Source: an uncultured Bacilli bacterium (GTDB taxonomy: Bacteria; Bacillota_I; Bacilli_A; RF39; UBA660). Taken from it: 64,000 bases of DNA. Where the stretch lies: assembly GCA_963931545.1 (NCBI GenBank), contig OZ007025.1:887692-951691 (forward strand), read 5' to 3'. Both the position numbers and the translations under genes were made by a program. Under the pieces are notes generated by a model. The model had not been told where the DNA came from, made no database searches, and worked only from the letters and a program-made list of their open reading frames with translations. Positions 8,093-64,000 of this stretch are shown here, piece after piece. Position 1 is the first letter of the stretch. Every line of letters begins with the position of its first letter.

Positions 8093-10122
8093 AAATCTTT
8101 TGTATAATCACATTTAGAACATTTGATAATGTTTTTCTTTTCTACTAACATCTCATTACAATTTGGACATTTTTCGCCAGTTGGTTTATCCCAATAAGCT
8201 GTTTTACATTTAGGATAGTTATTACAGCCATAAAAGGTTTTGCCTTTTCTAGTTTTCTTTTCTATTATTTTTCCATCACAGTTTGGACAGTCACAGATAA
8301 TTTGTTCTTCTTTTTTTTCTTGCTTTATGTATTTACATTCTGGGAAATTACTACAAGCAACAAATGAGCCATATTTACCTTTTCTAATAACTAATGGATG
8401 ACCACATTCTGGACACATCTCGCCTGTTTTTTCAGCTTCTTTTTTAGGTAATTTATCAAAAGCTTCTTTAACAGCTGGTTCAAATTCTTTATAAAAATCT
8501 TCTAAGACTTTATACCACACTTCTTTTCCTTCAGCAATTTTATCTAAATCTGTTTCCATATTAGCAGTATATTTAACGTTAATTAGATGACTAAAACATT
8601 CTTGAAGTTTATCGGTTACCTCAAAACCAATATCAGTTGGAACAAATTTGCGGTCTACTAGATTTACATATCCCCTATTTTTAATATTGTCAATTATTGT
8701 GGCATATGTACTAGGTCTACCAATACCTAATTCATCCATTTCTTTGATTAGTTTAGCTTCGGTATACCTAGCTGGTGGCTCTGTAAAGTGTTGTTCTTTA
8801 GTAATATCTTTTGAAACAATTATTTTTGAATTATATTCATCAAAAGGTGGCAAAATTGCATCTTTTGTATCTTCATAATCTTTATATATTTTTAAATAAC
8901 CATCAAAGATAATAACTTGACCTGTTGCTTTAAAGTTATAGTCATTGTTATTTAAAATAACGGTTGTTCCTTCTACTTTAGCAGGAGCCATAATACTAGC
9001 TAAAGCTCTATAATAAATTAATCTATATAATTTAAATTCGTCATCGGTTAAGTATGGTTTAACGCTTTCTGGAGTTCTTTCAATACTGGTTGGTCTGATA
9101 GCTTCGTGAGCATCTTGAACATTTTCGGTTTTTTTACTTATTTTGACTGGTCCAGTATATTCTTTGCCATATTTGTTTTCAATAAATTTATAGGTTTCAG
9201 CGATAAATTCATTAGATAATCTAATGGAATCTGTACGCATATAAGTGATTAAACCAACTGTTTCATGTGCTAAATCGATACCTTCATATAATTTTTGTGC
9301 AACACTCATGGTTTTTCTTGATGAAAATCTTAATTTATTTGATGCGGTTTGCTGCAAGGTACTTGTCGTAAAAGGTGGCTTTGATTGTTTGTTTTTTTGT
9401 TTTTTATCTACACTTTCAATTTCAAAAGCTTTAGTTAATTTATTTAAAATTTCATTCGCTTCATTTTCGGTTTTTATTTCTATTTTTTTATGATTTTGGG
9501 CAAATAAATCAGCTTGGAAATCCTGAAAATCAGCTTGAACTGTCCAATATTCTTCTGGATTAAAGGCTTTTATTTCTCTTTCTCTATCAACAATTAATTT
9601 TAAGGCAACGCTTTGAACTCTACCAGCAGATGAGCCATCAGTTTTAGACTGAATCAATTTACTTAATCTAAAACCAATTATTCTATCTAATATTCTTCTA
9701 GTTTCCTGACTATTTACTAAATCTTGGTCAATTTTGCCTTCATGTTTCATAGCTTCTAAGATAGCATTTTTTGTAATTTCGTTAAATGTTACTCTACTAT
9801 AAGGTTTATCTTTTAGGTCTAAACAATCATAAAGGTGCCAAGCGATAGCTTCCCCTTCTCTATCATGGTCGGTTGCAAGATATACTTTGTCAGCTTGTTT
9901 TGTTTCTTTTTTTAATTCATTTATAACACTTTTTTTACCTTTTATTGTTTTATAGTCAGGTTTAAAATGATTTTCAATATCTACTCCTAAACCATATTTA
10001 CCTTTGGTTGATAAATCTCTAATATGGCCTTTACTAGAAGATACAATATAATTATTACCTAAATATTTACTAATTGATTTTACTTTTGTGGGAGATTCCA
10101 CAATGACTAAACTTTTACCCAT
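8089..10122 (-). CDS. topA: DNA topoisomerase I with C-terminal zinc-ribbon repeats
   Basis: The N-terminus (VIVESPTKVKSISKYLG), the TOPRIM motif (TDHDREGEAIAWH) and three C-terminal CxxC...CxxC zinc ribbons identify it. Confidence 0.9.
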   Translation of the reverse strand: MGKSLVIVESPTKVKSISKYLGNNYIVSSSKGHIRDLSTKGKYGLGVDIENHFKPDYKTIKGKKSVINELKKETKQADKVYLATDHDREGEAIAWHLYDCLDLKDKPYSRVTFNEITKNAILEAMKHEGKIDQDLVNSQETRRILDRIIGFRLSKLIQSKTDGSSAGRVQSVALKLIVDREREIKAFNPEEYWTVQADFQDFQADLFAQNHKKIEIKTENEANEILNKLTKAFEIESVDKKQKNKQSKPPFTTSTLQQTASNKLRFSSRKTMSVAQKLYEGIDLAHETVGLITYMRTDSIRLSNEFIAETYKFIENKYGKEYTGPVKISKKTENVQDAHEAIRPTSIERTPESVKPYLTDDEFKLYRLIYYRALASIMAPAKVEGTTVILNNNDYNFKATGQVIIFDGYLKIYKDYEDTKDAILPPFDEYNSKIIVSKDITKEQHFTEPPARYTEAKLIKEMDELGIGRPSTYATIIDNIKNRGYVNLVDRKFVPTDIGFEVTDKLQECFSHLINVKYTANMETDLDKIAEGKEVWYKVLEDFYKEFEPAVKEAFDKLPKKEAEKTGEMCPECGHPLVIRKGKYGSFVACSNFPECKYIKQEKKEEQIICDCPNCDGKIIEKKTRKGKTFYGCNNYPKCKTAYWDKPTGEKCPNCNEMLVEKKNIIKCSKCDYTKDL

Positions 10123-10253: not shown

Positions 10254-11177
10254 ATGACTGAAAAAGAAATAGAAATATTTGAGATGATTGATGCGGGCTG
10301 TAGTTTGAATGAAATATCTTATAAGTTATGGCTTAGTTCTAGACAAGTGCATCAAAAAATTATTAAGCTTAAAAATGAAGGATATTTTATTAGACCAATC
10401 TATTATGATGATGGAGAGATAAAATACGATTTTGAAGAAGATAATAGTAATCATACTATAAATATTAAATTGTGTAATGATTTTAAATTTAAGGCTTTGG
10501 TTATTTCAGATATTCACATAGGTAATACTTTGGAAAATTTAAGTTATTTATATAAGGCTTATGATTATGCGAGAGACCATGATATACATATTATTTTTAA
10601 TTGTGGAGATATAATTGATGGCTCTTTTACTAAAGGTACTCAAAATATTTTTAATATTGATGGACAAATAGATAAAGTGATTAATAACTATCCTCACGAT
10701 AATTATATTTTGAATTTCATTTGTTTTGGCAACCATGATTATTGTTCTAATAAATATGGGAGAGATATATCTTTAGCCCTTTCAAATAGTAGACAAGATT
10801 TAATAAGTGCGGGTTATGAGTTTTCTTTAATTAATGTTGAAAAAGACCAATTTGCCTTATATCATCCTATAAATGAAATGGGTTTTAAGTCAATTCCTAA
10901 TAAACTTATTTTAGAAGGACACCATCATAAAATGTTAGTTAAGATTAAACGAAATAATTATTTTATTAATGTACCATCTCTTAGCGATTTATGTTTTGGT
11001 AATCAAGAAAATCCTGGAATGTTAGAAATGGAATTATTATTTGGTGGTGGTTTTATTCATAATGCTTTTTTTAAACAAATTGGAGTAAAAAACAATTTTG
11101 AAGTTTATAGTGAATTTAATATAGAATTTTTTCTAAAACATGAAAAATTAGATGAAAAAAAGTTAATATTAAAATGA
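10254..11177 (+). CDS. Calcineurin-like metallophosphoesterase with N-terminal HTH domain
   Basis: Phosphoesterase motifs DIHIG, GDIIDG and GNHD follow a 60-aa helix-turn-helix-like N-terminus. Confidence 0.5.
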   Translation: MTEKEIEIFEMIDAGCSLNEISYKLWLSSRQVHQKIIKLKNEGYFIRPIYYDDGEIKYDFEEDNSNHTINIKLCNDFKFKALVISDIHIGNTLENLSYLYKAYDYARDHDIHIIFNCGDIIDGSFTKGTQNIFNIDGQIDKVINNYPHDNYILNFICFGNHDYCSNKYGRDISLALSNSRQDLISAGYEFSLINVEKDQFALYHPINEMGFKSIPNKLILEGHHHKMLVKIKRNNYFINVPSLSDLCFGNQENPGMLEMELLFGGGFIHNAFFKQIGVKNNFEVYSEFNIEFFLKHEKLDEKKLILK

Positions 11178-11187
11178 TTTAAAAATT

Positions 11188-12123
11188 TTAATATTTACCG
11201 CATTTACTTCCCCATGAGTCAACTAACTCATCATTTCTATATATTTTAAGAAGTTCACAGTTATTAGAACATCTATGACATTCAAAACCTTTAGTTATAA
11301 ATTTTAAATTTTGCATTTCTAATGAATATTCATTTCCGTTTTTATTTTTTTTAGCTAAAACAGCTATACCAATAGCTCCCATCAAATGACTATTTTCATC
11401 AACTATAATATCTTCTTTTAATATTTCTTTAAAATATTTAACTACTCCTTTGTTTTTGGAAACCCCACCTTGAAAAATAATTGGTGGGATTATTTTTTTA
11501 CCTTTACCAACATTATTTAAATAATTTAAAACGACACTTTTACAAAGTCCAGCAATTATATCTTCTTTAGGATAACCTACCCCAGCTTTATGAACTAAAT
11601 CGGATTCCGCAAATACTGTACATCTAGCAGCTATTTTTACAGGGTTTTTAGATTTTAAAGCATAATCTCCAAATTCTTCTACATTTATGCCGAGTCTTTT
11701 AGCTTGACTAGATAGAAATGAACCTGTTCCAGCCGCACATAAAGTATTCATGGCATAATTTGTTATTATTCCATTTTTTATCAAAATTATTTTAGAATCT
11801 TGACCACCAATTTCTAAAATAGTTCTAACATTAGGATAAAAGGTTAATGTTCCAATGGCATGTGCTGTTATTTCATTTTTTACAATATTAGCATTTAACA
11901 TTAAACCAATTAATTTTCTTGCACTTCCTGTTGTGCCAATACCTTTTACTTTATAATCTTTAGGTATTTTATCTTTTAAAATATTTAATAATTTTTTTAC
12001 AGCTTGAACGGGATTACCTTCAGTCCAAATATAACTAGAGGTTAAAATATTATTATCATTATCTATGATAACTCCTTTGGTTGAAATAGAACCAATATCA
12101 ACTCCTAAATAACATTCTTTCAT
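11188..12123 (-). CDS. BadF/BadG/BcrA/BcrD-type ATPase, CoA-substrate-specific enzyme activase (HgdC-like)
   Basis: The N-terminus has the activase signature (LGVDIGSISTKGVIIDNDNNIL), an ASKHA fold and C-terminal Cys residues. Confidence 0.6.
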   Translation of the reverse strand: MKECYLGVDIGSISTKGVIIDNDNNILTSSYIWTEGNPVQAVKKLLNILKDKIPKDYKVKGIGTTGSARKLIGLMLNANIVKNEITAHAIGTLTFYPNVRTILEIGGQDSKIILIKNGIITNYAMNTLCAAGTGSFLSSQAKRLGINVEEFGDYALKSKNPVKIAARCTVFAESDLVHKAGVGYPKEDIIAGLCKSVVLNYLNNVGKGKKIIPPIIFQGGVSKNKGVVKYFKEILKEDIIVDENSHLMGAIGIAVLAKKNKNGNEYSLEMQNLKFITKGFECHRCSNNCELLKIYRNDELVDSWGSKCGKY

Positions 12124-13181
12124 TTGTTTTTCCTCATTTCTAACATATCATAAAAAGCTTCTAATCTAGTTTTAATTCCCGTTTCTGAAGTGGTGGTATC
12201 AAAACTAAAAAATAAAACTGGTTTTTGATATGTACTTGCAATTTTATTAATTATAGGCATAGCTCCTATTTCAGGCGTACAGAAAGATGATTTAATATGA
12301 ATTATTCCATCGTAATCATTTTCACATAAGTATTTACATCTTGCGATATTATCAGAAGCATCAGCTCCCATATTATATTTAAAATATTCTTTAGCATATT
12401 TTTTGTATTTTTTAGTTTTTTTTGCTTTTTCGAATAACAAATAATGAACATTGGTAAACCTTTTAATTTCAATATGATGTTTAGCTAACTGTTTTTCTAA
12501 AAAATAGTTAGAAAATGGCTCCATTATAGTATATAACTCTCCTATTATTCCAATTTTAATCCTATTATCTGGTTTATGAATTTTTATTTTATGGAATTTA
12601 TTTAAATATTTTTTATATGTTGGTTTTAATTCTTTATATCTTTTAATATGAGAAAATTCTATAAGCATTTCTTTTTTTAGACTTTCAAAAGTACCTTTTT
12701 TTATCTCAAAACCTATATTTTCTCTAATATAATTATCTATCTCATCCATATATTTAACCATTTTAAATGTAATAAAACTATAATATAAAGCTTTTATTTT
12801 AGAGTATTTTGGATTTATAATTTTCAACAACTTATTTATCCTTTTAAATCTAGTAACTCCTTCTGTAACTAAATTAATTATGGTACATTCATAACCTAAA
12901 TCTTTAATAATTTTTTCTTGCACCTCTGCATAATAACCATATCTACATCCTCCACCCATTTGAATTAAAATATCGGCTTTTTCTTCTAAACATTCTATCA
13001 TTGTTCCTAAAGTATATTTAAATGGTGTACATACAAATTCTGGAGAATACTTAGTACCTATTTCTACTGTTTTATTAGTTATTTTAGGAGCTTTGATTAC
13101 TTTTACATTTGGAAATATATGTGAAAGTAAGTAATTTGCAGGAACATAATAATCGCCCATTTGTGGAAATGCTATTTTCAT
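12120..13181 (-). CDS. 2-hydroxyacyl-CoA dehydratase component-D-like (HGD-D/DUF2229) protein
   Basis: Family-level resemblance to HGD-D proteins. Start and stop overlap the neighbouring genes, indicating a coupled operon with the activase. Confidence 0.45.
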   Translation of the reverse strand: MKIAFPQMGDYYVPANYLLSHIFPNVKVIKAPKITNKTVEIGTKYSPEFVCTPFKYTLGTMIECLEEKADILIQMGGGCRYGYYAEVQEKIIKDLGYECTIINLVTEGVTRFKRINKLLKIINPKYSKIKALYYSFITFKMVKYMDEIDNYIRENIGFEIKKGTFESLKKEMLIEFSHIKRYKELKPTYKKYLNKFHKIKIHKPDNRIKIGIIGELYTIMEPFSNYFLEKQLAKHHIEIKRFTNVHYLLFEKAKKTKKYKKYAKEYFKYNMGADASDNIARCKYLCENDYDGIIHIKSSFCTPEIGAMPIINKIASTYQKPVLFFSFDTTTSETGIKTRLEAFYDMLEMRKNK

Positions 13182-52626: not shown

Positions 52627-53319
52627 ATGTTTGATTTTTTGAAGAAACTATTTAAAGATTTTTATCTTTTTACAGCTTCTTATTCTAATAATGTTTTTCC
52701 TGACCCACTTTCTAAGGAAGATGAAGAAAAATATATTAAATTAGCCAATATGGGAGATATGGAAGCAAGAAATAAACTTATAGAACATAATTTAAGATTG
52801 GTTGCTCATATTGTGAAAAAATATGACCATGGGTCTGATATGTCTGATGATTTAATTAGTATTGGGACTATTGGTTTAATTAAAGGGGTTGATAGCTATT
52901 CTTTTAAATATAAAACTAGACTTACTACTTACTGTGCGAGATGCATTGAAAATGAGATTTTAATGTTTTTTAGGTCAGATAAGAAAAATAATAAAAATAT
53001 AAGTATAGATGAGCCTATTGGTTTTGATAAAGAAGGAAATGCAATTACTTTTTTAGATATTTTGAAAACCGATAAACCTGATTTTGCTTTAGATATACAT
53101 ATACAAAATAATGTGAAATTATTAAAAAAATATTTTAATGTTTTGACTGATAGAGAAAAAGAAATTATTATTAAAAGATATGGTTTAGATGGTAAAGATG
53201 AGATAACTCAAAAGGAAATTGCGAAAGAAATGGGTATTTCTAGAAGTTATGTTTCTAGAATTGAAAAAAGGGCATTAACTAAGATGCTTAGGGAATTTAT
53301 TAAAAATAAAAATAGTTAA
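52627..53319 (+). CDS. sigK: Sporulation sigma factor SigK (pro-sigma-K with N-terminal pro-sequence), uninterrupted
   Basis: The sequence NNVFPDPLSKEDEEKYIKLANMGDMEARNKLIEHNLRLVAHIVKKY is near-identical to B. subtilis SigK. Region 4 (ISRSYVSRIEKRALTKM) is also present. Confidence 0.8.
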   Translation: MFDFLKKLFKDFYLFTASYSNNVFPDPLSKEDEEKYIKLANMGDMEARNKLIEHNLRLVAHIVKKYDHGSDMSDDLISIGTIGLIKGVDSYSFKYKTRLTTYCARCIENEILMFFRSDKKNNKNISIDEPIGFDKEGNAITFLDILKTDKPDFALDIHIQNNVKLLKKYFNVLTDREKEIIIKRYGLDGKDEITQKEIAKEMGISRSYVSRIEKRALTKMLREFIKNKNS

Positions 53320-53322
53320 TTT

Positions 53323-53350
53323 CTCAAAACTGTGTCTAGACACAGTTTTA
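53323..53350. terminator. Bidirectional terminator (palindrome CTGTGTCTAGACACAG flanked by A- and T-runs)
   Basis: The palindrome lies between the convergent sigK and ileS genes. Confidence 0.55.
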
Positions 53351-53409
53351 AGAAATAGAAAAAACTAGTTTAATGATGTGAATCCCATTTGGAAGACATC
53401 AAATAAAAA

Positions 53410-56139
53410 CTAGTTTTCTTCATTTATAATTTCATGGCATCTTGGGCATAGATGATCTGTTAAGTCAATTTCATTAAAGTAATTCCAGCATCTTTCACAC
53501 CTTTCGCCATCAAATTTTTGAACTTTAACTTCACAGTATTCATATTTTGGAAGTTCATCTGGGGTTAAGATAACATCTGATACAATGAATAATTGTTTTA
53601 ATTTTGTTAAAATTGGTTTTAATGTTTCTTTATCTTCGTCGCGTAAATTTAAGAATACTTTAGCTTCTAAAGATTTACCGATTATTTTTTCGTTTCTTGC
53701 TTCTTCTAAGGCTTTATAAACATCATTTTTAATTTCAAAGAATAATTCGAATATTTCCTTTGTTTCTACTTCATCTTTATATGGTTTTACTTCTGGGAAG
53801 TTTTCTAGATGAACACTCTTTTCTTTTTTACCTGGAAGTAATTTATAAACTTCTTCTGATGTATAAGGTAAAATTGGAGCCATTAATTTAATTAATGAAG
53901 TTAAGATTTCATATAAAACGGTTTGAACACTTCTTCTTTCATCACTATCATATTTTTCAATATATAAAATATCTTTAGTATAATCTAAGTAGAAATTAGA
54001 TAATGAATTGACATAATTATTAATTAATTTATAAATTTCATCAAAGTTATAATTATCGTATTCTTTGATTACTTTTTCAATGATATCATTTAATTCTAAT
54101 AACATATATTTATCAGATATAGGTAATTTATCATAAGGTATTTTATCTTTATCTGGATTAAAGTCAAATAAGTTACCCAACATAAATCTATATGTATTTC
54201 TTATTTTTCTATATGATTCTTTAACTCCAGCTAATAGTTCATCACTAAATCTAACATCTTCAGTATAGTCAACGCTGGCTACCCATAGTCTTAAGATATC
54301 CGCACCTTGTTTACCAACAACATCCATTGGTCTTACAATATTACCAATGCTTTTACTCATTTTAAAGCCTTTACCATCTAAGACAAAACCTGCGGAAACT
54401 AATTCTTTATAAGGACTATGACCACTATAAGCCATACTACAAATTAATGATGAATTAAACCAACCACGGTATTGGTCTGAGCCTTCTAAGTAAACATCAG
54501 CTGGATAAGGTAATTTTCTTTCTAATAAGGTTCCAGCCCAAGATGTTCCTGAGTCAAACCAAACATCCATGATATCTGTTTCTTTAGTAAAGTTACCATT
54601 TGGGCTAGCTGGATTAGTATATCCTTTTGGAAGTAATTCTTTAGCGTCTTTTTCAAACCAAATGTTTGAGCCATATTTTCTAAATAATGAAGCTACATGC
54701 ATCATGACATTGTAATCAACAATAGCTGAGCCATCTTCATTATAGAAGATTGGAATTGGTACACCCCAAGCTCTTTGCCTTGAAATACACCAGTCTCCCC
54801 TATCTTTAATCATGTTATATATTCTAGTTTTACCCCAGTCTGTATGGAATTTAACATTGGTATCTAATTCTTTTAAAATTTCATCTCTTATTTTATCTAC
54901 ACTACAAAACCATTGTTTGGTAGCTCTAAAGATGATTGGTTTTTTTGTTCGCCAGTCATGAGGATATGAGTGAGTTATTTTCTTTAATTTTAATAAATAA
55001 CCGTTTTCTTTTAACCATTCTGGAATTTTTTTATTAGCTTCTTCAACTGTTAATCCTACAAACATTCCAGATTCTTCATTTAAAACACCGTTATCATTTA
55101 CTCCATTTACCATACCTAAGTTGTATTTTTTTCCAACGTTGAAATCATCTTCACCATATGAAGGAGCGGTATGAACTAAACCTGTTCCAGTATCTAAAGT
55201 TACATGGTCTGCAGTTACAACTGGGGATGTTCTATCCATAAATGGATGTTTATAGATAACATTTTCTAAATCTTTTCCTTTAAAGGTTGATAATACTTCA
55301 TAGTTTTCAAATTCAAATTCTTTCATTAAGTCTTCTAATAGATTACTTGCGACAATATAGTTATTATCATCTACTTTTACTTTAGAATATTCAAATTCTG
55401 GGCCAGCACAGACACCCATATTTCCAGGTAAGGTCCAAGGTGTTGTTGTCCAAATGACTAATTTATCTCCTTTATCTACATAATCATTTCCTTCTACAAT
55501 AGTAAAGGCAACGTATATTGATGGATCAGTTTTATCTTTATATTCGATTTCAGCTTCAGCTAGTGCGGTTTCACTACTTGGAGACCAATAAACTGGTTTT
55601 AGTCCTTGGAATATTAAACTTTTTTCAGCCATTTTAGCAAATACTTCAATTTGTCTTGCTTCATATTCTGGATTTAAGGTTATATATGGGTTATCCCAAT
55701 CGGCTATAACATTTAGTCTTTTGAAGTCTTCCATTTGGGTTTCTACTTGTTTTAAGGCATATTCTTTACAGTATTCTCTAAATTCGGCAATGGACATTTT
55801 TTTTCTATCTACACCACTATTGGTAACAGCTTGTTCGATAGGGAGTCCATGAGTATCCCAACCTGGAATATATTCTACATAGTAGCCTTCCATCATTTTA
55901 GAACGGTTGATAAAATCTTTTAATATTTTATTTAATGAATGACCTAGATGAATATTACCATTCGCATAAGGTGGTCCGTCGTGTAAGATGAATGGTTTAT
56001 TGTTTTTATTTTTGTTTTTGATTAGATTATATAAATCCATTTCATCCCATTCTTTACGTTGTTTAACTTCATTTTCTGCTAAGTTGCCCCTCATTTTAAA
56101 TTCTGTTTTTGGCATTAATAATGTATCTTTATAATCCAT
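53410..56139 (-). CDS. ileS: Isoleucyl-tRNA synthetase
   Basis: The HIGH motif (NGNIHLGH), the KMSKS motif and a C-terminal zinc finger (CERC...CPRCH) are present. The gene is 909 aa. Confidence 0.95.
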   Translation of the reverse strand: MDYKDTLLMPKTEFKMRGNLAENEVKQRKEWDEMDLYNLIKNKNKNNKPFILHDGPPYANGNIHLGHSLNKILKDFINRSKMMEGYYVEYIPGWDTHGLPIEQAVTNSGVDRKKMSIAEFREYCKEYALKQVETQMEDFKRLNVIADWDNPYITLNPEYEARQIEVFAKMAEKSLIFQGLKPVYWSPSSETALAEAEIEYKDKTDPSIYVAFTIVEGNDYVDKGDKLVIWTTTPWTLPGNMGVCAGPEFEYSKVKVDDNNYIVASNLLEDLMKEFEFENYEVLSTFKGKDLENVIYKHPFMDRTSPVVTADHVTLDTGTGLVHTAPSYGEDDFNVGKKYNLGMVNGVNDNGVLNEESGMFVGLTVEEANKKIPEWLKENGYLLKLKKITHSYPHDWRTKKPIIFRATKQWFCSVDKIRDEILKELDTNVKFHTDWGKTRIYNMIKDRGDWCISRQRAWGVPIPIFYNEDGSAIVDYNVMMHVASLFRKYGSNIWFEKDAKELLPKGYTNPASPNGNFTKETDIMDVWFDSGTSWAGTLLERKLPYPADVYLEGSDQYRGWFNSSLICSMAYSGHSPYKELVSAGFVLDGKGFKMSKSIGNIVRPMDVVGKQGADILRLWVASVDYTEDVRFSDELLAGVKESYRKIRNTYRFMLGNLFDFNPDKDKIPYDKLPISDKYMLLELNDIIEKVIKEYDNYNFDEIYKLINNYVNSLSNFYLDYTKDILYIEKYDSDERRSVQTVLYEILTSLIKLMAPILPYTSEEVYKLLPGKKEKSVHLENFPEVKPYKDEVETKEIFELFFEIKNDVYKALEEARNEKIIGKSLEAKVFLNLRDEDKETLKPILTKLKQLFIVSDVILTPDELPKYEYCEVKVQKFDGERCERCWNYFNEIDLTDHLCPRCHEIINEEN

Positions 56140-56153
56140 AAATTATATCTCCT

Positions 56154-57338
56154 TTATTTTTTAATTCCTTTTGTTCCATTATATTCACTTAATATATTAG
56201 ATGTAAAACTTGATGTTTTACGCATTTCATTTTTATAATCTTTGATAGCTGATTTAATTAATTCATCAGTTAAGGTTTTATAGTCTTTTCCTTTTGGTTT
56301 ATATAGATAAAATGCGAGTGAGCCTGGTATTGTATTTGGCTCATTAACGTATATTTCATTTGTTTCTTTATTTACTAGATAATCTATTCGGCAAACACCT
56401 TTTAAATTTAATACTCTAAATACTTTTTTAGATATTTCATATATTTGATTTGTCATTTCTTCTGATATTTTAGCGGGGATATCAAATTCGCTTGTCGACA
56501 TAGAAGAAGGCATTTTAGAATTTTTCATACCTTTTCCTTTTGAGGCTCCTAGATATTTATCTTCAAAGGTTAAAAGTTCATGTTTCATTTTCATTTCGGC
56601 AATGAAACTAGTTTCCATATATTCATAGTTACCACAGACAGCACAGTTTAATTCTTGTAAGTTGGGAATCATTTGTTCAATAATGATTTTCTTTTCATAT
56701 TCTAAAGCTTCTTCTATCGCTTTGATTAATTCTTCTTTATTATGGGCGGTACTTATTCCAATAGTACTTCCTAAGTTTGCGGGTTTGACAATTACAGGAT
56801 AGTTTAAGCTTTCTACTTTTTCTATTATTTCATCTTTATTCATATTATATTCAAAGTCGTAAAACCAAATATATTTTGGTGTTTTAATATTATTGGCTTC
56901 TAAAACTTGTTTTAATACGACTTTATCTTGTCCTAAAGCGGCACCTAGTACTGATGGACCAACAACTGGCAAACCTAATGTTTCTAAATATCCAGCTAAA
57001 GAGCCATCTTCTACTCCTTTACCATGAACTATCGGAAAAGCGACATCTATGGTATTAACATTTCTACCAAATAATCCTTTTATTTTTTGTAGGATAATCT
57101 CGTTACCTTTTCGACAAATAGTTATTTCTTTGACAAATTTTTTCATGTTATCAAAGTATTTATATGTATCCATATCTCTTAAAGCCGCCCCTGTATAAAA
57201 GTGTCTATCTTTACTGATATAGATAGGTATAATTTCATATTTTTCCTCATCAATATTTTCCATAGCTTGCAGTGCTGAAATGATACTTACTTCGTGTTCA
57301 ACTGAATCTCCACCAAAAATAACTCCAACTTTAATCAT
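56154..57338 (-). CDS. ddl: D-alanine--D-alanine ligase (ATP-grasp), long form with internal insertion
   Basis: The N-terminal sequence MIKVGVIFGGDSVEHEVSIISA and an ATP-grasp core are present. A roughly 40-aa insertion (KMKHELLTFEDKYLGASKGKGMKNSKMPSS) is also present. Confidence 0.7.
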   Translation of the reverse strand: MIKVGVIFGGDSVEHEVSIISALQAMENIDEEKYEIIPIYISKDRHFYTGAALRDMDTYKYFDNMKKFVKEITICRKGNEIILQKIKGLFGRNVNTIDVAFPIVHGKGVEDGSLAGYLETLGLPVVGPSVLGAALGQDKVVLKQVLEANNIKTPKYIWFYDFEYNMNKDEIIEKVESLNYPVIVKPANLGSTIGISTAHNKEELIKAIEEALEYEKKIIIEQMIPNLQELNCAVCGNYEYMETSFIAEMKMKHELLTFEDKYLGASKGKGMKNSKMPSSMSTSEFDIPAKISEEMTNQIYEISKKVFRVLNLKGVCRIDYLVNKETNEIYVNEPNTIPGSLAFYLYKPKGKDYKTLTDELIKSAIKDYKNEMRKTSSFTSNILSEYNGTKGIKK

Positions 57339-57343
57339 TTAAA

Positions 57344-58942
57344 TCACTCCTTTTCGTTAAATATGTCTGGTAAATCATTTTCTAATAAGACATATGTTTC
57401 ATTTTCTTTTAATGTTTGAATTAATGGGAAAGCTTTTAAAACATCATTTATAATGTGAATTTTATTTTCATCATAATGTTTTTCTTTTAAGCCTTCATAT
57501 ATTGGTTTTGTTTTTTCTGCACCGACTAATATTACTTCGTCGGCACTATCAGCAATTTGTGTTCCAAATATTTTATTTTTTTCATATTCTTCATTACCTA
57601 ACTCAATCATACCTGGGGTTACTACTATATGTTTTCCAGGCATCATTTTTAAAACATCTAAAGCCATTTTAGCTCCTGTTGGATTTGAGTTATAGGCATC
57701 ATCAATTATATTTATATCGCCATTTTTCTTTAATTCTAGGCGGTGTTCAACAGGTTTTACTTTGGCAACTCCAGCTTTTAACTGTTCTATATTCATGCCA
57801 AATTCTATGCCTAAGGCAATGGCGGCTAGAATATTATACACGTTAGCGTATCCCAATAGTTTTGTTTCAAATTTATAAGGTTTATCATCATTTTTAAAAT
57901 AAACATCAAAGGTTGTTCCTTTAGGACTTAGAGTTATGTTTTTAGCTATGACGTCAGCATCTAAACTATCTATACCTATCCATTTTATTTTACAGTTATT
58001 TTTTATTTTATAATTTCTTTGCCACTCATCATCTTTATTTAATATACCTATTCCATCACTTGGTAAAGATTCGATTAGTTCAAATTTTGTTTTTTGAATG
58101 TTTTCCCTTGAACCAAAGGTGGCAAGATGAGCAACACCTATTTTAGTGATTATACCGTATTTCGGATGAACTAAATCACATAATTCTTTAATATCTCCTT
58201 CTTGGCAAGCACCCATTTCTGCTATAAAGACATCAGTGAATTTATCTAGATAATTATTTATGGTAATCATTAGACCAAATGGGGTGTTGAAATTTTTAGG
58301 GGTTGGCATGGAATTATATTTAATATTCAAAATATCATTTAAAATATTTTTACTACTTGTTTTACCATAACTGCCTGTAATACCAACTACTTTTAAGGTT
58401 TTCATGCTTTTTATTTTATTTATAGCTTTTCTTTTAAAATAATAACCGACTAATGATTCAACTGGGGTATTTATTAATAGAGCCACTAAAATATATAGGT
58501 TATTTAAATATGCAATTAGACCTAAGATTAAATAAAAGTAAATTATATTTGTCTCATCTACAAATAAGCTCATAATGATGATTGGAATTAGATGTGTTAA
58601 GATGTTTGTAAATGTTAGTCTTTTTACTCTAGCTGTATATTTAAGAGGTAGTTTGTTTTGAGATTTTTTTCTTTCTAATAATAAGTTTACAGTTAATATT
58701 AGATATAGTACGTTAAAACATAACATTAATAATATTAAGTTATCATAAAAAATAAATATGCTTAGGACTATAAATAATATACTATAATCTTTGAAAGCTT
58801 TTTTAGGATTTTTCTTTAGCCATTTTAGATATGTTTTTTTTCTATTATATTTATTTTGCTGAAGCATGTGCATAGAATCTTGGCTTTTTAAAAATGTATA
58901 AATAAAATAGATAATAACTGTTATTAAAAATATTTTAGTCAT
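57344..58942 (-). CDS. murF: UDP-MurNAc-tripeptide--D-Ala-D-Ala ligase MurF with N-terminal multi-TM extension
   Basis: The Mur ligase P-loop (GITGSYGKTSSKNIL) sits at residue 190. It is preceded by about 170 aa carrying four or five hydrophobic helices. Confidence 0.7.
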   Translation of the reverse strand: MTKIFLITVIIYFIYTFLKSQDSMHMLQQNKYNRKKTYLKWLKKNPKKAFKDYSILFIVLSIFIFYDNLILLMLCFNVLYLILTVNLLLERKKSQNKLPLKYTARVKRLTFTNILTHLIPIIIMSLFVDETNIIYFYLILGLIAYLNNLYILVALLINTPVESLVGYYFKRKAINKIKSMKTLKVVGITGSYGKTSSKNILNDILNIKYNSMPTPKNFNTPFGLMITINNYLDKFTDVFIAEMGACQEGDIKELCDLVHPKYGIITKIGVAHLATFGSRENIQKTKFELIESLPSDGIGILNKDDEWQRNYKIKNNCKIKWIGIDSLDADVIAKNITLSPKGTTFDVYFKNDDKPYKFETKLLGYANVYNILAAIALGIEFGMNIEQLKAGVAKVKPVEHRLELKKNGDINIIDDAYNSNPTGAKMALDVLKMMPGKHIVVTPGMIELGNEEYEKNKIFGTQIADSADEVILVGAEKTKPIYEGLKEKHYDENKIHIINDVLKAFPLIQTLKENETYVLLENDLPDIFNEKE

Positions 58943-58943
58943 G

Positions 58944-59684
58944 TTAATTCTCCTTTATAAAATTTTTAATGATAGAATTGGTTTGGCCTAATCTTTCTAG
59001 ATAAGCATAATGAGTACATCCTTCATAAGGAATTACAGCTGAATCTTTGATTAATGTTTCTAATTCGTAGGCATCAGCGATTGGGACTGCGGCATCATTA
59101 GTTCCCCATATAATTATAGTTGGACAGGTTATTTTTTTTACGTTTTCGGTTATGTCAGTATTTACATGTTTTACTAATATATCTCGCATCATTGGGGAGG
59201 CTTTTCTATAATCTTCTGAGCCCATATGTTTTTTCATGGTTTCAGCTAGTTTATTTAAACCTGGCATAGTTTTTAATTTTTTTAAAGCTCTTACTTTTAA
59301 ACTGTTTGGATTTTTCTTGACTTTAAATGGGCTTCCAAACAAGATTAATTTTTTTACTTTATACATGCTTGCATATAACAAACTTATTTTACCGCCAAAT
59401 GAATGACCAATTAATATAGGATTTTCTATATTTAATGAGGTTAATAATTCGTGAATCATTTGGACAAAATCGGTTAATAACCATACTTCTTTAGGCTCTT
59501 CACTTTGTCCATGACCAGGTAGGTCAATTATTATAACATCATTATCAGTTAAGCTATCGCCGACTGGTTTCATCATTTGGATGTTTTGACCCCAGCCGTG
59601 TAACAAAACAACTGTTTGATTATTTATATTTCCATATCTAATATAATTTATATTAATATCTTTATATTTAAACATTTCTTTCAC
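58944..59684 (-). CDS. Alpha/beta-fold hydrolase
   Basis: The HGWGQN oxyanion region and the GHSFGG nucleophile elbow are present. The likely start is the ATG at 59666 (MFKYKD, preceded by an AGAAGGTGA RBS). Confidence 0.6.
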   Translation of the reverse strand: MKEMFKYKDININYIRYGNINNQTVVLLHGWGQNIQMMKPVGDSLTDNDVIIIDLPGHGQSEEPKEVWLLTDFVQMIHELLTSLNIENPILIGHSFGGKISLLYASMYKVKKLILFGSPFKVKKNPNSLKVRALKKLKTMPGLNKLAETMKKHMGSEDYRKASPMMRDILVKHVNTDITENVKKITCPTIIIWGTNDAAVPIADAYELETLIKDSAVIPYEGCTHYAYLERLGQTNSIIKNFIKEN

Positions 59685-59699
59685 CTTCTTTTTATTATA

Positions 59700-59935
59700 A
59701 CATACATACCATATTTCAACAATAAAAAAACGTCCTTAGTTAAGGACGAGTTTTCCCGCGGTACCACCTTATTTTATTTTTTAAATACTCTCAATAACTA
59801 TAACGCGTTACCGTTCTTATCTACTTTATTCAAAAAGAAACATCAAGAGTGATTTATATATTAAAATCGTTATTAGTTTCCACCATTCACTAACTCTCTT
59901 TAAACTTTTTTAATATACGCTCTCTATCATATGTT
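59700..59935 (-). promoter_or_regulatory. T-box riboswitch leader (candidate Ile specifier AUC-A) with terminator/antiterminator
   Basis: On the minus strand the T-box sequence AAUAAGGUGGUACCGCGGG is followed by the terminator CGUCCUUA-acu-AAGGACG plus U7. Upstream are an AGAGA/GUGA stem I region and a candidate specifier AAAUCAC. Confidence 0.7.
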
Positions 59936-59936
59936 T

Positions 59937-60416
59937 TTATATATCTAATTTGTCTATATCATTAATTATATCTAATTGTGATTCAATGATGCTTTTAAGT
60001 CTACGTTTTAAAACATTAATATTTCTTTTAGTCATTTCAGCATCATTTTCTATTTTTTCAGCTTTGATTAATGCATCATTTACTATTCTACTAGCGTTTT
60101 TCTTCGCATCATCTAAGATTATTTCGCTTTCATGATGAGCGGCTATTTTTAATTGGTCTGAGGTTTTTTGGGCCATGATTATGGCTCTATTTAAAGTGTT
60201 TTCCATGCGTTCATATTGTTCTAATTTTTCTTTTAGTGCGGTTGTTTCTTCTAATTTTAATTTTAATTTTCTGATTTCATCATTTTTATCGACAATTAGT
60301 TTATTTTTCGCATCTATATCGGCTATCATTTTTTCTACTCTTTTGATAACCTGATCTAAAAAGTTATTTACTTCATCTGGATCATAACCACGCATGACTC
60401 TTGTAAATTTTTCCAT
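59937..60416 (-). CDS. divIVA: DivIVA-domain cell-division protein
   Basis: The sequence FTRVMRGYDPDEVNNFLDQV and a coiled-coil are present. The gene lies downstream of sepF, with conserved synteny. Confidence 0.6.
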   Translation of the reverse strand: MEKFTRVMRGYDPDEVNNFLDQVIKRVEKMIADIDAKNKLIVDKNDEIRKLKLKLEETTALKEKLEQYERMENTLNRAIIMAQKTSDQLKIAAHHESEIILDDAKKNASRIVNDALIKAEKIENDAEMTKRNINVLKRRLKSIIESQLDIINDIDKLDI

Positions 60417-60456: not shown

Positions 60457-60861
60457 TTACCACTCTATATCTATATTATTATTATCATGAATACCTTTGC
60501 CTTCGGTATCGTTTGTTATTTTTCCTTGAACACTAACGTTATTTGGTGTACATAAGAAGATTCCTCCACCTATTTTTTGTAAATCTCCACCTATCGCATA
60601 TATTGTTCCACTTAGAAAATCAACTATTCTTTTAGCTTGTTCAGGGGTAACCCTTTTTAAGTTGACAACTACGGTATTTCTTTTCTTTAAATGGTCAGCT
60701 ATTTGCTGGGACTCAGAATAAGCTCTAGGCTCAAGCAATATCATTTTTGCTCCGCCTTCTTCAGTTAATGCTTCTTCTGCTTTTAAATCATAATATTGAT
60801 CGTTTGATGGTGCAGCAAAGACATCTTCTTCTTCACCCATGATTTTCTTTATCAAACCCAT
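60457..60861 (-). CDS. sepF: Cell division protein SepF
   Basis: The sequence [27 protein letters not shown]...[29 protein letters not shown] is the SepF core. Confidence 0.7.
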
Positions 60862-63087: not shown

Positions 63088-64000
63088 TTAAAATTTTGTT
63101 TTTTCATTTAAATAGTTTTCTAATTCATCTACTTTAACTACATCTTGTTTCATGGTATCTCTATTTCTAACTGTAACGGTATTATTATTAATGGTATCAT
63201 CATCAACGGTTATACAAAAAGGCGTTCCTGCAATATCCTGTCTTCGATATCTTTTACCAATATTTCCTGTTTCATCATAAGTTATCATAAATGTTTTAGA
63301 TAATTTATTATATATTTCTAAAGCTTTATCTTTATGATGTTTTTTGACAAGTGGTAGAATAGCGGCTTTATAAGGAGCTAGGAAAGGATGGAAATGCATG
63401 ACCTCTCTAGTAGTGCCATCTTCTAGCGTTTCTTCTTCATAGGCGTTACACAATATAGCTAAAGCAAGACGGTCTGCTCCTACACTTGATTCGACAATGG
63501 TTGGTAATATTTTTTCATTAGTATCTGGGTCTAGATATCTCATTTGATTTCCAGAATATTCTTCATGTCTTGATAAGTCATAAGTTCCTCTATGATGAGT
63601 TCCCCAAAGTTCATCAAAGCCAAATGGAAATCTATATTGAATATCACATGCGGCTTTACAGTAAAAGACTAATTTTTCATGGTCTTTAAATCTGATATCT
63701 TCTTTTTTGATACCTAAATCTATTAAGAAATTCCAAGCTTTTTGTTTATAATTTTCATAAAAATTCATTGAATCTTCTTCTTTACAGAAAAGTTGGTGCT
63801 CCATCTGTTCAAATTCAACTGTTCTAAAGGTAAAGTTTCCTGGGGTAATTTCATTTCTAAAGGCTTTACCTATTTGACCTATTCCAAATGGAAGTTTAGC
63901 TCTCATAGATTTTTGAACGTTTAAGAAATTGACAAATTCTCCTTGAGCGGTTTCTCCTCTTAAATATACTTTTGATGAATCATCTTTGATAACTCCCCTA
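63088..64000 (-). CDS. glyQS: Glycyl-tRNA synthetase, alpha2 (GlyQS) type; C-terminal portion (gene continues past window end)
   Basis: The class II motif 3 region (GIGQIGKAFRNEITPGNFTFRTVEFEQMEHQLFC) and an anticodon-binding domain are present. The reading frame is open to position 64000. Confidence 0.85.
   Translation of the reverse strand, partial: RGVIKDDSSKVYLRGETAQGEFVNFLNVQKSMRAKLPFGIGQIGKAFRNEITPGNFTFRTVEFEQMEHQLFCKEEDSMNFYENYKQKAWNFLIDLGIKKEDIRFKDHEKLVFYCKAACDIQYRFPFGFDELWGTHHRGTYDLSRHEEYSGNQMRYLDPDTNEKILPTIVESSVGADRLALAILCNAYEEETLEDGTTREVMHFHPFLAPYKAAILPLVKKHHKDKALEIYNKLSKTFMITYDETGNIGKRYRRQDIAGTPFCITVDDDTINNNTVTVRNRDTMKQDVVKVDELENYLNEKTKF

Follow-up and report, generated by a model that had tools for sequence, protein, structure and literature searches.

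T-box control of ileS, the gene for isoleucyl-tRNA synthetase (IleRS), is widespread. It is present in at least 29 of 34 Firmicutes, with no cell-wall targets listed (PMC2494555), and ileS is a T-box family member in Bacillus subtilis and Staphylococcus aureus (Grundy et al. 1997, as cited in the same source). In those two species the leader lies between divIVA and ileS, which is the standard order in Firmicutes. The subject here is what has become of that arrangement in an uncultured Bacilli bacterium, within a stretch of 64,000 nt of its contig OZ007025.1 (hereafter the window; all operon features below are on its minus strand and coordinates are those of the window unless a relative is named). 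The leader there is of the same family, with the same AUC specifier, the same position after divIVA and the same antiterminator/terminator logic, but it is parted from ileS by 3.6 kb of cell-wall genes with a candidate promoter of their own, and it starts at the divIVA stop codon, leaving no intergenic space for a promoter. The inserted genes, for an alpha/beta-fold hydrolase (hyd), a MurF-like Mur ligase and a D-alanine--D-alanine ligase (Ddl), are referred to as the cassette. The whole is likely to be a two-input operon created by insertion, in which MurF and Ddl would be boosted by the T-box rather than gated by it.

Two other described systems are relevant. In Bacillus and Staphylococcus, ddl and murF are found together, outside the portion of the division and cell-wall cluster that holds murE and mraY. 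The likeness is that Ddl and MurF are encoded together, presumably as housekeeping genes behind a constitutive promoter, whereas here the order is hyd-murF-ddl with the hydrolase gene as the constant first member, MurF has a helical hydrophobic N-terminus of ~180 amino acids in lieu of the canonical domain, and Ddl bears an insertion in the omega loop along with a tail rich in Gly and Lys. Is there a precedent for a T-box that bears on the cell wall? Only one case has been described in which a T-box is connected with peptidoglycan synthesis, that of S. aureus glyS, whose leader responds to both proteinogenic and cell-wall tRNA-Gly (PMC4574755, PMC12256121), the connection being via the tRNA pool shared with the Fem transferases. 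In that case the regulated gene is only the synthetase gene, whereas in the window cell-wall genes are physically inside the T-box unit, and no use of tRNA-Ile in wall synthesis is known. In the literature searched, no paper connects murF or ddl with a T-box.

The leader

RF00230, the T-box family, is the sole Rfam match in the window (E 7e-24, full model 1-219), with a score above the gathering score, which bears out the T-box that a preliminary description of this DNA had proposed; orthologous leaders score 98.6-112.5 bits with the same model. Seven leaders were aligned, those of the window and of the relatives' loci L007, L009, L010, L087, L088 and L089. RNAalifold finds 48 consensus pairs in them, 12 of which have compensatory double changes, Stem I included. 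In the folded Stem I of the window the 3′ strand of the specifier loop reads A-A-A-U-C-A, and R-R-A-U-C-A is invariant at that place in 7/7 leaders. It is because of this invariance and the fold that AUC at 59853-59851 is taken to be the specifier, as had been suspected. In the antiterminator fold UAAGG/CCUUA and GCGGG/CUCGU helices flank the UGGUACC bulge (59766-59760). CCUUA has alternative partners, either UAAGG in the antiterminator or those of the terminator hairpin CGUCCUU/AAGGACG, and so the two structures are mutually exclusive. The terminator, earlier placed at 59724-59754, matches a stem at 59748-59731 followed by a U-tract at 59730-59724. At the level of sequence the leader carries all the defining features of a transcriptional isoleucine T-box, and the amino acid is matched by the unit since ileS is its last gene, though 3.6 kb downstream. 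No tRNA gene was found within the window.

In each of the seven lineages the stop codon of divIVA is also where the leader begins. As this leaves no intergenic space for a promoter belonging to the leader, either the promoter that feeds it must, on the present alignment, lie inside divIVA, or the leader must be a 3′ extension of the sepF-divIVA transcript; the two are equally possible.

The insertion

Open reading frames (ORFs), Pfam and NCBIfam confirm the order sepF-divIVA-[T-box]-ileS with three genes in between. The intergenic gaps hyd-murF, murF-ddl and ddl-ileS are 1, 5 and 14 nt, as tight as previously described, the hyd start being ATG 59675 behind AAGGTGA and not GTG 59684. A terminator scan found none from hyd to the end of ileS, so the earlier statement that internal terminators are lacking holds; the minus strand has just two terminator-like sites, that of the T-box and one at 53356-53319, after ileS.

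Did the three genes come to the leader, or the leader to them? A tblastn map gave 80 species-level loci that hold a relative of the Mur ligase. In ~60 of these the hyd-murF-ddl triad is conserved, Aquibacillus kalidii and Firmicutes bacterium ZOR0006 among them, and its flanks are highly variable, its positions in the ~60 loci being unrelated. The arrangement sepF-divIVA-...-hyd-murF-ddl-ileS is confined to the closest relatives, L001-L010 and L088, the last found via DivIVA. Crucial is a metagenome contig, L087, in which divIVA is followed by a T-box at 8477-8673 and by ileS at 8702 with nothing between, the terminator U-tract leading directly into the ileS ribosome-binding site. This is exactly the divIVA-[Ile T-box]-ileS arrangement of B. 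subtilis and S. aureus. Identity of the L087 IleRS to every other one is 71-74%, against 77-91% within the rest, and on that ground L087 is the outgroup; the identity matrix was used in place of a quick neighbour-joining tree whose bootstraps looked unreliable. With the direct order in the outgroup, it is the cassette that is derived: judged from these sequences, hyd, murF and ddl were inserted secondarily, after the leader of ileS and ahead of ileS itself. That they were inserted, as first proposed, is borne out both by L087 and by the independent existence of the cassette in ~60 species.

Proteins identical to those of the window are present on many contigs from gut metagenomes, up to 1.36-1.54 Mb in length. 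The closest named relative by MurF is a metagenome-assembled genome (MAG) of Candidatus Coprosoma (88% identical), and DivIVA of the window shares 89% identity with its counterpart in 'Firmicutes bacterium CAG:822'. Candidatus Coprosoma corresponds to GTDB genus CAG-822, family CAG-822, order RF39 (PMC8035907). Within this group the inserted block is not of fixed content. In L088 two extra small genes (279 and 68 amino acids, without family match) lie between murF and ddl at 11072-12145, in the T-box-linked operon. There is also a polymorphism among strains of one species: a gene of 469-474 amino acids with a weak Peptidase_M14 match is present between ddl and ileS in L001 (12798-14207), L003, L004 and L005, and L002, L006 and the strain of the window lack it. 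In the window the junction of the deletion falls at ~56140-56165, between A-runs, and the deletion changed the Ddl C-terminus from ...GFKKGVK to ...GIKK.

A candidate promoter behind the terminator

The preliminary description held that there was no room for internal promoters. This is refuted by the 48 nt that separate the U-tract from the hyd ATG, which contain TTGTTG (59722-59717), a 17-nt spacer and the extended -10 TGtTATAAT (59702-59694), a candidate promoter termed P_hyd. The extended -10, TGnTATAAT, is invariant in the window, L007, L008, L009, L010, L088 and L089, and in all of these but L089, which is dealt with below, it is ~27 nt before the hyd ATG. A TTG -35 is found 17-18 nt upstream of it in every one of these lineages except L010. 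The spacer between terminator and promoter varies across relatives from ~20 to 50 nt in length, and also in content.

The motif is not peculiar to the T-box-linked copies. In 36 of 62 species-level loci the strict form, TGNTATAAT, precedes the hyd start by 13-50 nt, and a relaxed form does so in 50/62. For the strict form in the equivalent interval the counts are 1/76 ahead of murF and 0/69 ahead of ddl, and 0.65% of background windows contain it. Since it is so concentrated before hyd, the cassette therefore appears to bring its own promoter wherever it is located, and to have retained it behind the T-box terminator. A generic sigma-70 scan was not used as evidence, its 58 matches, against 54.3 expected, being at chance level.

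For the T-box to be the only entry, with expression of hyd, murF, ddl and ileS alike confined to times of uncharged tRNA-Ile and D-Ala-D-Ala synthesis so tied to isoleucine charging, transcription would have to have no start in this interval, and a conserved extended -10 promoter is what is found between terminator and hyd. The close packing of the terminator-free genes, and a T-box held under selection in six lineages after the insertion, are what that reading has in its favour, together with a second clade, described below, in which a T-box and a type-2 ileS precede the cassette. However, MurF and Ddl are needed for any growth, and gating them strictly by starvation would be self-defeating. 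Two natural variants also speak against it.

Natural variants

In L008, whose MurF is 80% identical to that of the window, Rfam detects no T-box. After divIVA it has, within 1170-1300, a plain strong terminator, GCGTCC-A7-GGACG-T5 (-13 kcal/mol, z -4.98), followed by TTGCTT-18-TGCTATAAT, hyd-murF-ddl, and ileS 28 nt after ddl. Barring promoters hidden in coding sequence, P_hyd would there be the only recognisable promoter for the essential ileS, which is left without a recognisable riboswitch. The same operon is thus behind a terminator and without the leader said to gate it.

L089 is the converse. It has the T-box (8479-8678), then TTGTTT-17-TGTTATAAT, and ileS 50 nt on, without the cassette. 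Its promoter is nearly identical to that of L009, a cassette-bearing relative with an IleRS 90.9% identical to its own, and its wider synteny (glyS, sepF, divIVA, ileS, a divergent sigma factor gene and an AraR-like gene) is that of the window. The cassette has been dropped from the T-box unit, and the promoter has stayed. The simplest history would be one insertion, then loss of the leader in one branch and, in another, loss or relocation of the cassette with its promoter left behind. As L008 has no T-box and L089 no cassette, the linkage between T-box and cell-wall genes appears evolutionarily labile, and on these comparisons it looks incidental rather than designed.

Taken with the conserved promoter downstream of the terminator, the two variants run counter to the earlier proposal that expression of MurF and Ddl is gated by uncharged tRNA-Ile. 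That the leader is the sole entry to the operon is very unlikely. Most likely, on this sequence evidence, MurF and Ddl are expressed constitutively and T-box read-through is additive, and the coupling of isoleucine to the cell wall would be at most an additive boost.

Two proposed inputs to one operon

How, then, might the operon work? The ancestor would have had sepF-divIVA-[Ile T-box]-ileS, the usual order of Bacilli. In the ancestor of the CAG-822/Candidatus Coprosoma clade a cassette would have entered the stretch from the T-box terminator to the ribosome-binding site of ileS, consisting of the alpha/beta hydrolase gene, those for a membrane-type MurF and for Ddl, and their own extended -10 promoter, and being presumably this lineage's counterpart of the Bacillus ddl-murF unit. 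The first input would be P_hyd, firing whatever the charging of tRNA, with hyd-murF-ddl-ileS transcribed as one unit to the terminator at 53356-53319. The second would be transcription that comes from sepF-divIVA, or from a promoter within divIVA, and meets the T-box. With charged tRNA-Ile it would stop at 59748-59724. With uncharged tRNA-Ile, the anticodon GAU would pair with AUC and the free 3′ NCCA end with the UGGU of the bulge, the antiterminator would form, and read-through would add to transcription of the operon. ileS would thereby keep its response to the T-box over a constitutive basal level, and murF and ddl would be passengers.

Since the T-box is still under purifying selection, read-through probably matters. 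Its obvious beneficiary is ileS, which it can reach only by crossing the cassette, and this supports co-transcription.

Several points weigh against this two-input reading. We infer the activity of P_hyd from its motif and conservation; the generic promoter scan, itself at chance level in a region of 29% G+C, missed it, the -35 being a 3/6 match. The leader predicted for its transcript is very short, ~12-14 nt, beginning at the Shine-Dalgarno sequence. A promoter feeding the T-box was not found when the last 120 nt of divIVA were aligned from eight lineages, where there are only weak -35/-10 candidates, all within coding sequence. Finally, ileS could be transcribed independently from a candidate promoter within the 3′ end of ddl.

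What if that last site, TTTACA-18-TATAAT at 56207-56178, were the main source of ileS expression, with ileS split from the cassette as a unit of its own and the T-box left as a remnant whose effect is mostly on the cassette? With 11/12 positions it is the best promoter-like match in the region, and TATAAT is present in all five ileS-linked species. But the site is in conserved coding sequence, ...SFTSNILSEYNG... (SEYNG / SNYNG), and TATAAT is also in three unlinked ddl genes that encode Y-N there; it is found wherever Ddl has Tyr-Asn at that place, so its conservation is inseparable from coding constraint. In strains with the extra M14-like gene it is 1.4 kb from ileS, and a vestigial T-box would hardly keep 12 compensated pairs and an invariant specifier. 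Such a split into separate units is accordingly quite unlikely, and the two-input operon, with one transcript from P_hyd and additive read-through from the T-box, remains the favoured explanation. The features on which it is built are in Table 1.

Table 1. Features of the ileS locus, in window coordinates
Feature	Position	Strand	Basis and remarks
sepF	60457..60861	-	Pfam SepF, E 1.5e-29
divIVA	59937..60416	-	Pfam DivIVA, E 8e-28; stop TAA 59939-59937 overlaps first T-box model position
T-box leader (Ile)	59739..59939	-	RF00230, 111.8 bits vs gathering score 93
Specifier codon AUC (Ile), then conserved purine A at 59850	59851..59853	-	cmscan alignment, Stem I fold, 7-leader alignment
Antiterminator 7-nt bulge UGGUACC	59760..59766	-	Sequence and antiterminator fold
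T-box intrinsic terminator, 7-bp stem CGUCCUU/AAGGACG (59748-59731) + U7 (59730-59724)	59724..59748	-	Terminator scan; fold -13.1 kcal/mol
Candidate cassette promoter P_hyd	59694..59722	-	-35 TTGTTG 59722-59717, 17-nt spacer, extended -10 TGtTATAAT 59702-59694; 18 nt upstream of hyd ATG
Alpha/beta-fold hydrolase (hyd), 243 aa, first cassette gene	58944..59675	-	Pfam Abhydrolase_1/6, Hydrolase_4
MurF-like Mur ligase, 532 aa	57344..58942	-	Pfam Mur_ligase_M and Mur_ligase_C only; TIGR01143 below cut-off
Ddl, D-alanine--D-alanine ligase, 394 aa	56154..57338	-	NF002528 288 bits vs 262; TIGR01205 253.6 vs 245.65
Candidate internal promoter TTTACA-18-TATAAT in ddl 3′ end	56178..56207	-	11/12 match; 39 nt upstream of ileS ATG
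ileS, type 1 IleRS, 909 aa, last gene of unit	53410..56139	-	TIGR00392 987.6 bits vs cut-off 621.4
Operon-closing intrinsic terminator	53319..53356	-	17-bp stem, then T-rich tail

The cassette proteins

The hydrolase, joined to murF-ddl in ~60 loci, reaches no NCBIfam cut-off, and its best PDB matches are generic lipases and esterases; from sequence it is a generic alpha/beta-fold enzyme, a putative hydrolase.

The Mur ligase is the unusual member. Its central (GxxGKT) and C-terminal domains are present and MurF heads the matches in NCBIfam, PDB and Foldseek alike: the best PDB match is MurF 1gg4 (E 2.4e-35, residues 181-477), and the AlphaFold2 (AF2) model (mean predicted local distance difference test, pLDDT, 82.6) has MurF as its top Foldseek matches. 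With TIGR01143 it scores 240.5 bits where the cut-off is 288.6, residues 182-518 covering profile positions 73-401 only. The canonical Pfam Mur_ligase N-terminal domain, the alpha/beta domain that holds the uridine diphosphate (UDP) moiety, was not found in it. Instead, residues 1-180 (window 58403-58942) are modelled as long helices (pLDDT ~85-93), contain 4-5 hydrophobic, transmembrane-like segments and hold a conserved MLQQNKYN motif. A search with residues 1-180 alone yielded 293 clusters at 50% identity in which the segment is always N-terminal, full-length members having 515-541 amino acids. The 'MurF' label given at the outset stands in so far as the closest matches go, and fails for the first ~180 residues, which match no MurF N-terminal domain, and for the TIGR01143 score. 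The model suggests that a membrane-like N-terminus replaces the canonical one. No description of a helical N-terminus on MurF was found in the literature, though papers on the muscle protein MuRF crowded the results for MurF with a membrane anchor.

Is it nevertheless the MurF of these bacteria? Its gene adjoins ddl in ~60 loci and murE in five, and in L060 murE is followed directly by mraY without another murF, as in Bacilli. On the basis of that adjacency and of L060, the ligase is quite probably the MurF of its lineage.

Ddl is more conventional. Its best PDB match is S. aureus Ddl 2i80 (E 9e-50), both Pfam Ddl domains (N and C) are present, and the Lys-Tyr of the omega-loop is kept, 'FEDKY' aligning with 'YKSKY' of S. 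aureus. After it comes an insertion of ~16 residues that is common to Ddl of the cassette family. A Van-type D-Ala-D-Lac or D-Ala-D-Ser ligase was considered and is disfavoured, as the Ddl cut-offs are met, Lys-Tyr is kept and Van models score far below their cut-offs. The tail, ...SFxxNIL..GxKGxKGxKGK, is Gly/Lys-rich family-wide (L007-L086; window 56154-56200) and is shortened in the window strain. It could be a membrane- or partner-binding element matching the membrane-type MurF.

The oddities of these proteins raise the issue of whether the cassette is an accessory module for peptidoglycan remodelling or resistance, for instance one that produces a changed terminus of the stem peptide or that works on muropeptides which are recycled or linked to lipid, rather than the housekeeping D-Ala-D-Ala branch. 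A MurF whose TIGR01143 score is under the cut-off and in which the canonical N-terminal domain gives way to a membrane-like helical one would suit such a role, and so would the M14-like peptidase in the cassette of some strains, a VanX-like M15 dipeptidase after the cassette in Aquibacillus kalidii, and the occurrence of two copies (L026 and L038) in one MAG. Yet the cassette is in most of the 80 species-level loci, in small genomes (about 1.3-1.5 Mb); it adjoins murE in five loci, and the murE-mraY pair of L060 has no second murF, a likeness to Bacilli, in which ddl is the partner of murF; and its Ddl passes the D-Ala-D-Ala ligase cut-offs with the omega-loop Lys-Tyr in place. An accessory role for the cassette as a whole is on balance rather unlikely, and its being the lineage's own MurF-Ddl branch is preferred.

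Aquibacillus kalidii is a conventional member of the Bacillaceae. In its locus (L085, 7222-12829) two genes come after the cassette, one for a VanX-like D-Ala-D-Ala dipeptidase (Peptidase_M15) and one for a 385-amino-acid protein without known family. The M15 neighbour hints at an accessory, van-like role in that organism.

A genome survey reported a meso-diaminopimelate (m-DAP) peptidoglycan pathway 'with steps missing' in RF39 gut Bacilli (PMC10868615), and its supplement has no murF or ddl entries. A divergent MurF that falls below the TIGR01143 cut-off would plausibly be missed by automated annotation.

A second association with isoleucine sensing

The linkage of the cassette to an isoleucine T-box has a parallel. 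In L040 (3265-10807), L067 (3986-10213) and L051 (2430-10792) an Ile (AUC-A) T-box is followed by a gene for a long type-2 (MupA/MupB-like) IleRS of 1031-1043 amino acids and then by the cassette; the T-boxes were read from sequence, Rfam having been run on L040 alone. As in the window, the cassette with its own TGnTATAAT promoter is on the same strand downstream of the T-box, but here ileS comes first and is of type 2. In L040 and L067 the cassette begins 115-195 nt after ileS, and TGnTATAAT is in that interval. L040 alone has a Nudix gene between T-box and ileS, and also a weak terminator-like hairpin after ileS; L051 has two further ORFs (277 and 239 amino acids) between ileS and cassette.

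That one and the same cassette is found behind an Ile T-box, and on its strand, in two unlike arrangements could point to a functional link, such that read-through would deliberately raise D-Ala-D-Ala capacity when tRNA-Ile is uncharged, the cassette perhaps being an undescribed membrane-associated form of the last cytoplasmic precursor steps in RF39-type gut Bacilli. There is a slim chance of this.

Other RNAs are nearby. Just past the high-coordinate end of the window, at ~4230-4440 of L001, a second T-box motif, GGTGGNACCGCG, is seen in the sequence before the glycyl-tRNA synthetase gene, the 3′ part of which is at 63088-63906 of the window. The locus thus appears to carry two aminoacyl-tRNA synthetase T-boxes within 5 kb. 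In L012, from a MAG of an uncultured gut 'Bacillales', a full-length OLE RNA (RF01071, 437 bits) is at 1890-2505, ~5 kb upstream of the cassette.

Implications

For T-box biology the locus and its relatives are a natural series in which a leader has been separated from its gene by an insertion. The outcomes differ. In some lineages the leader was retained, with compensatory changes in its helices, while the inserted promoter would provide a constitutive floor; one lineage has discarded the leader, and another has discarded the insert and kept its promoter. The series is also a caution that genes downstream of a riboswitch are not all to be read as regulated by it.

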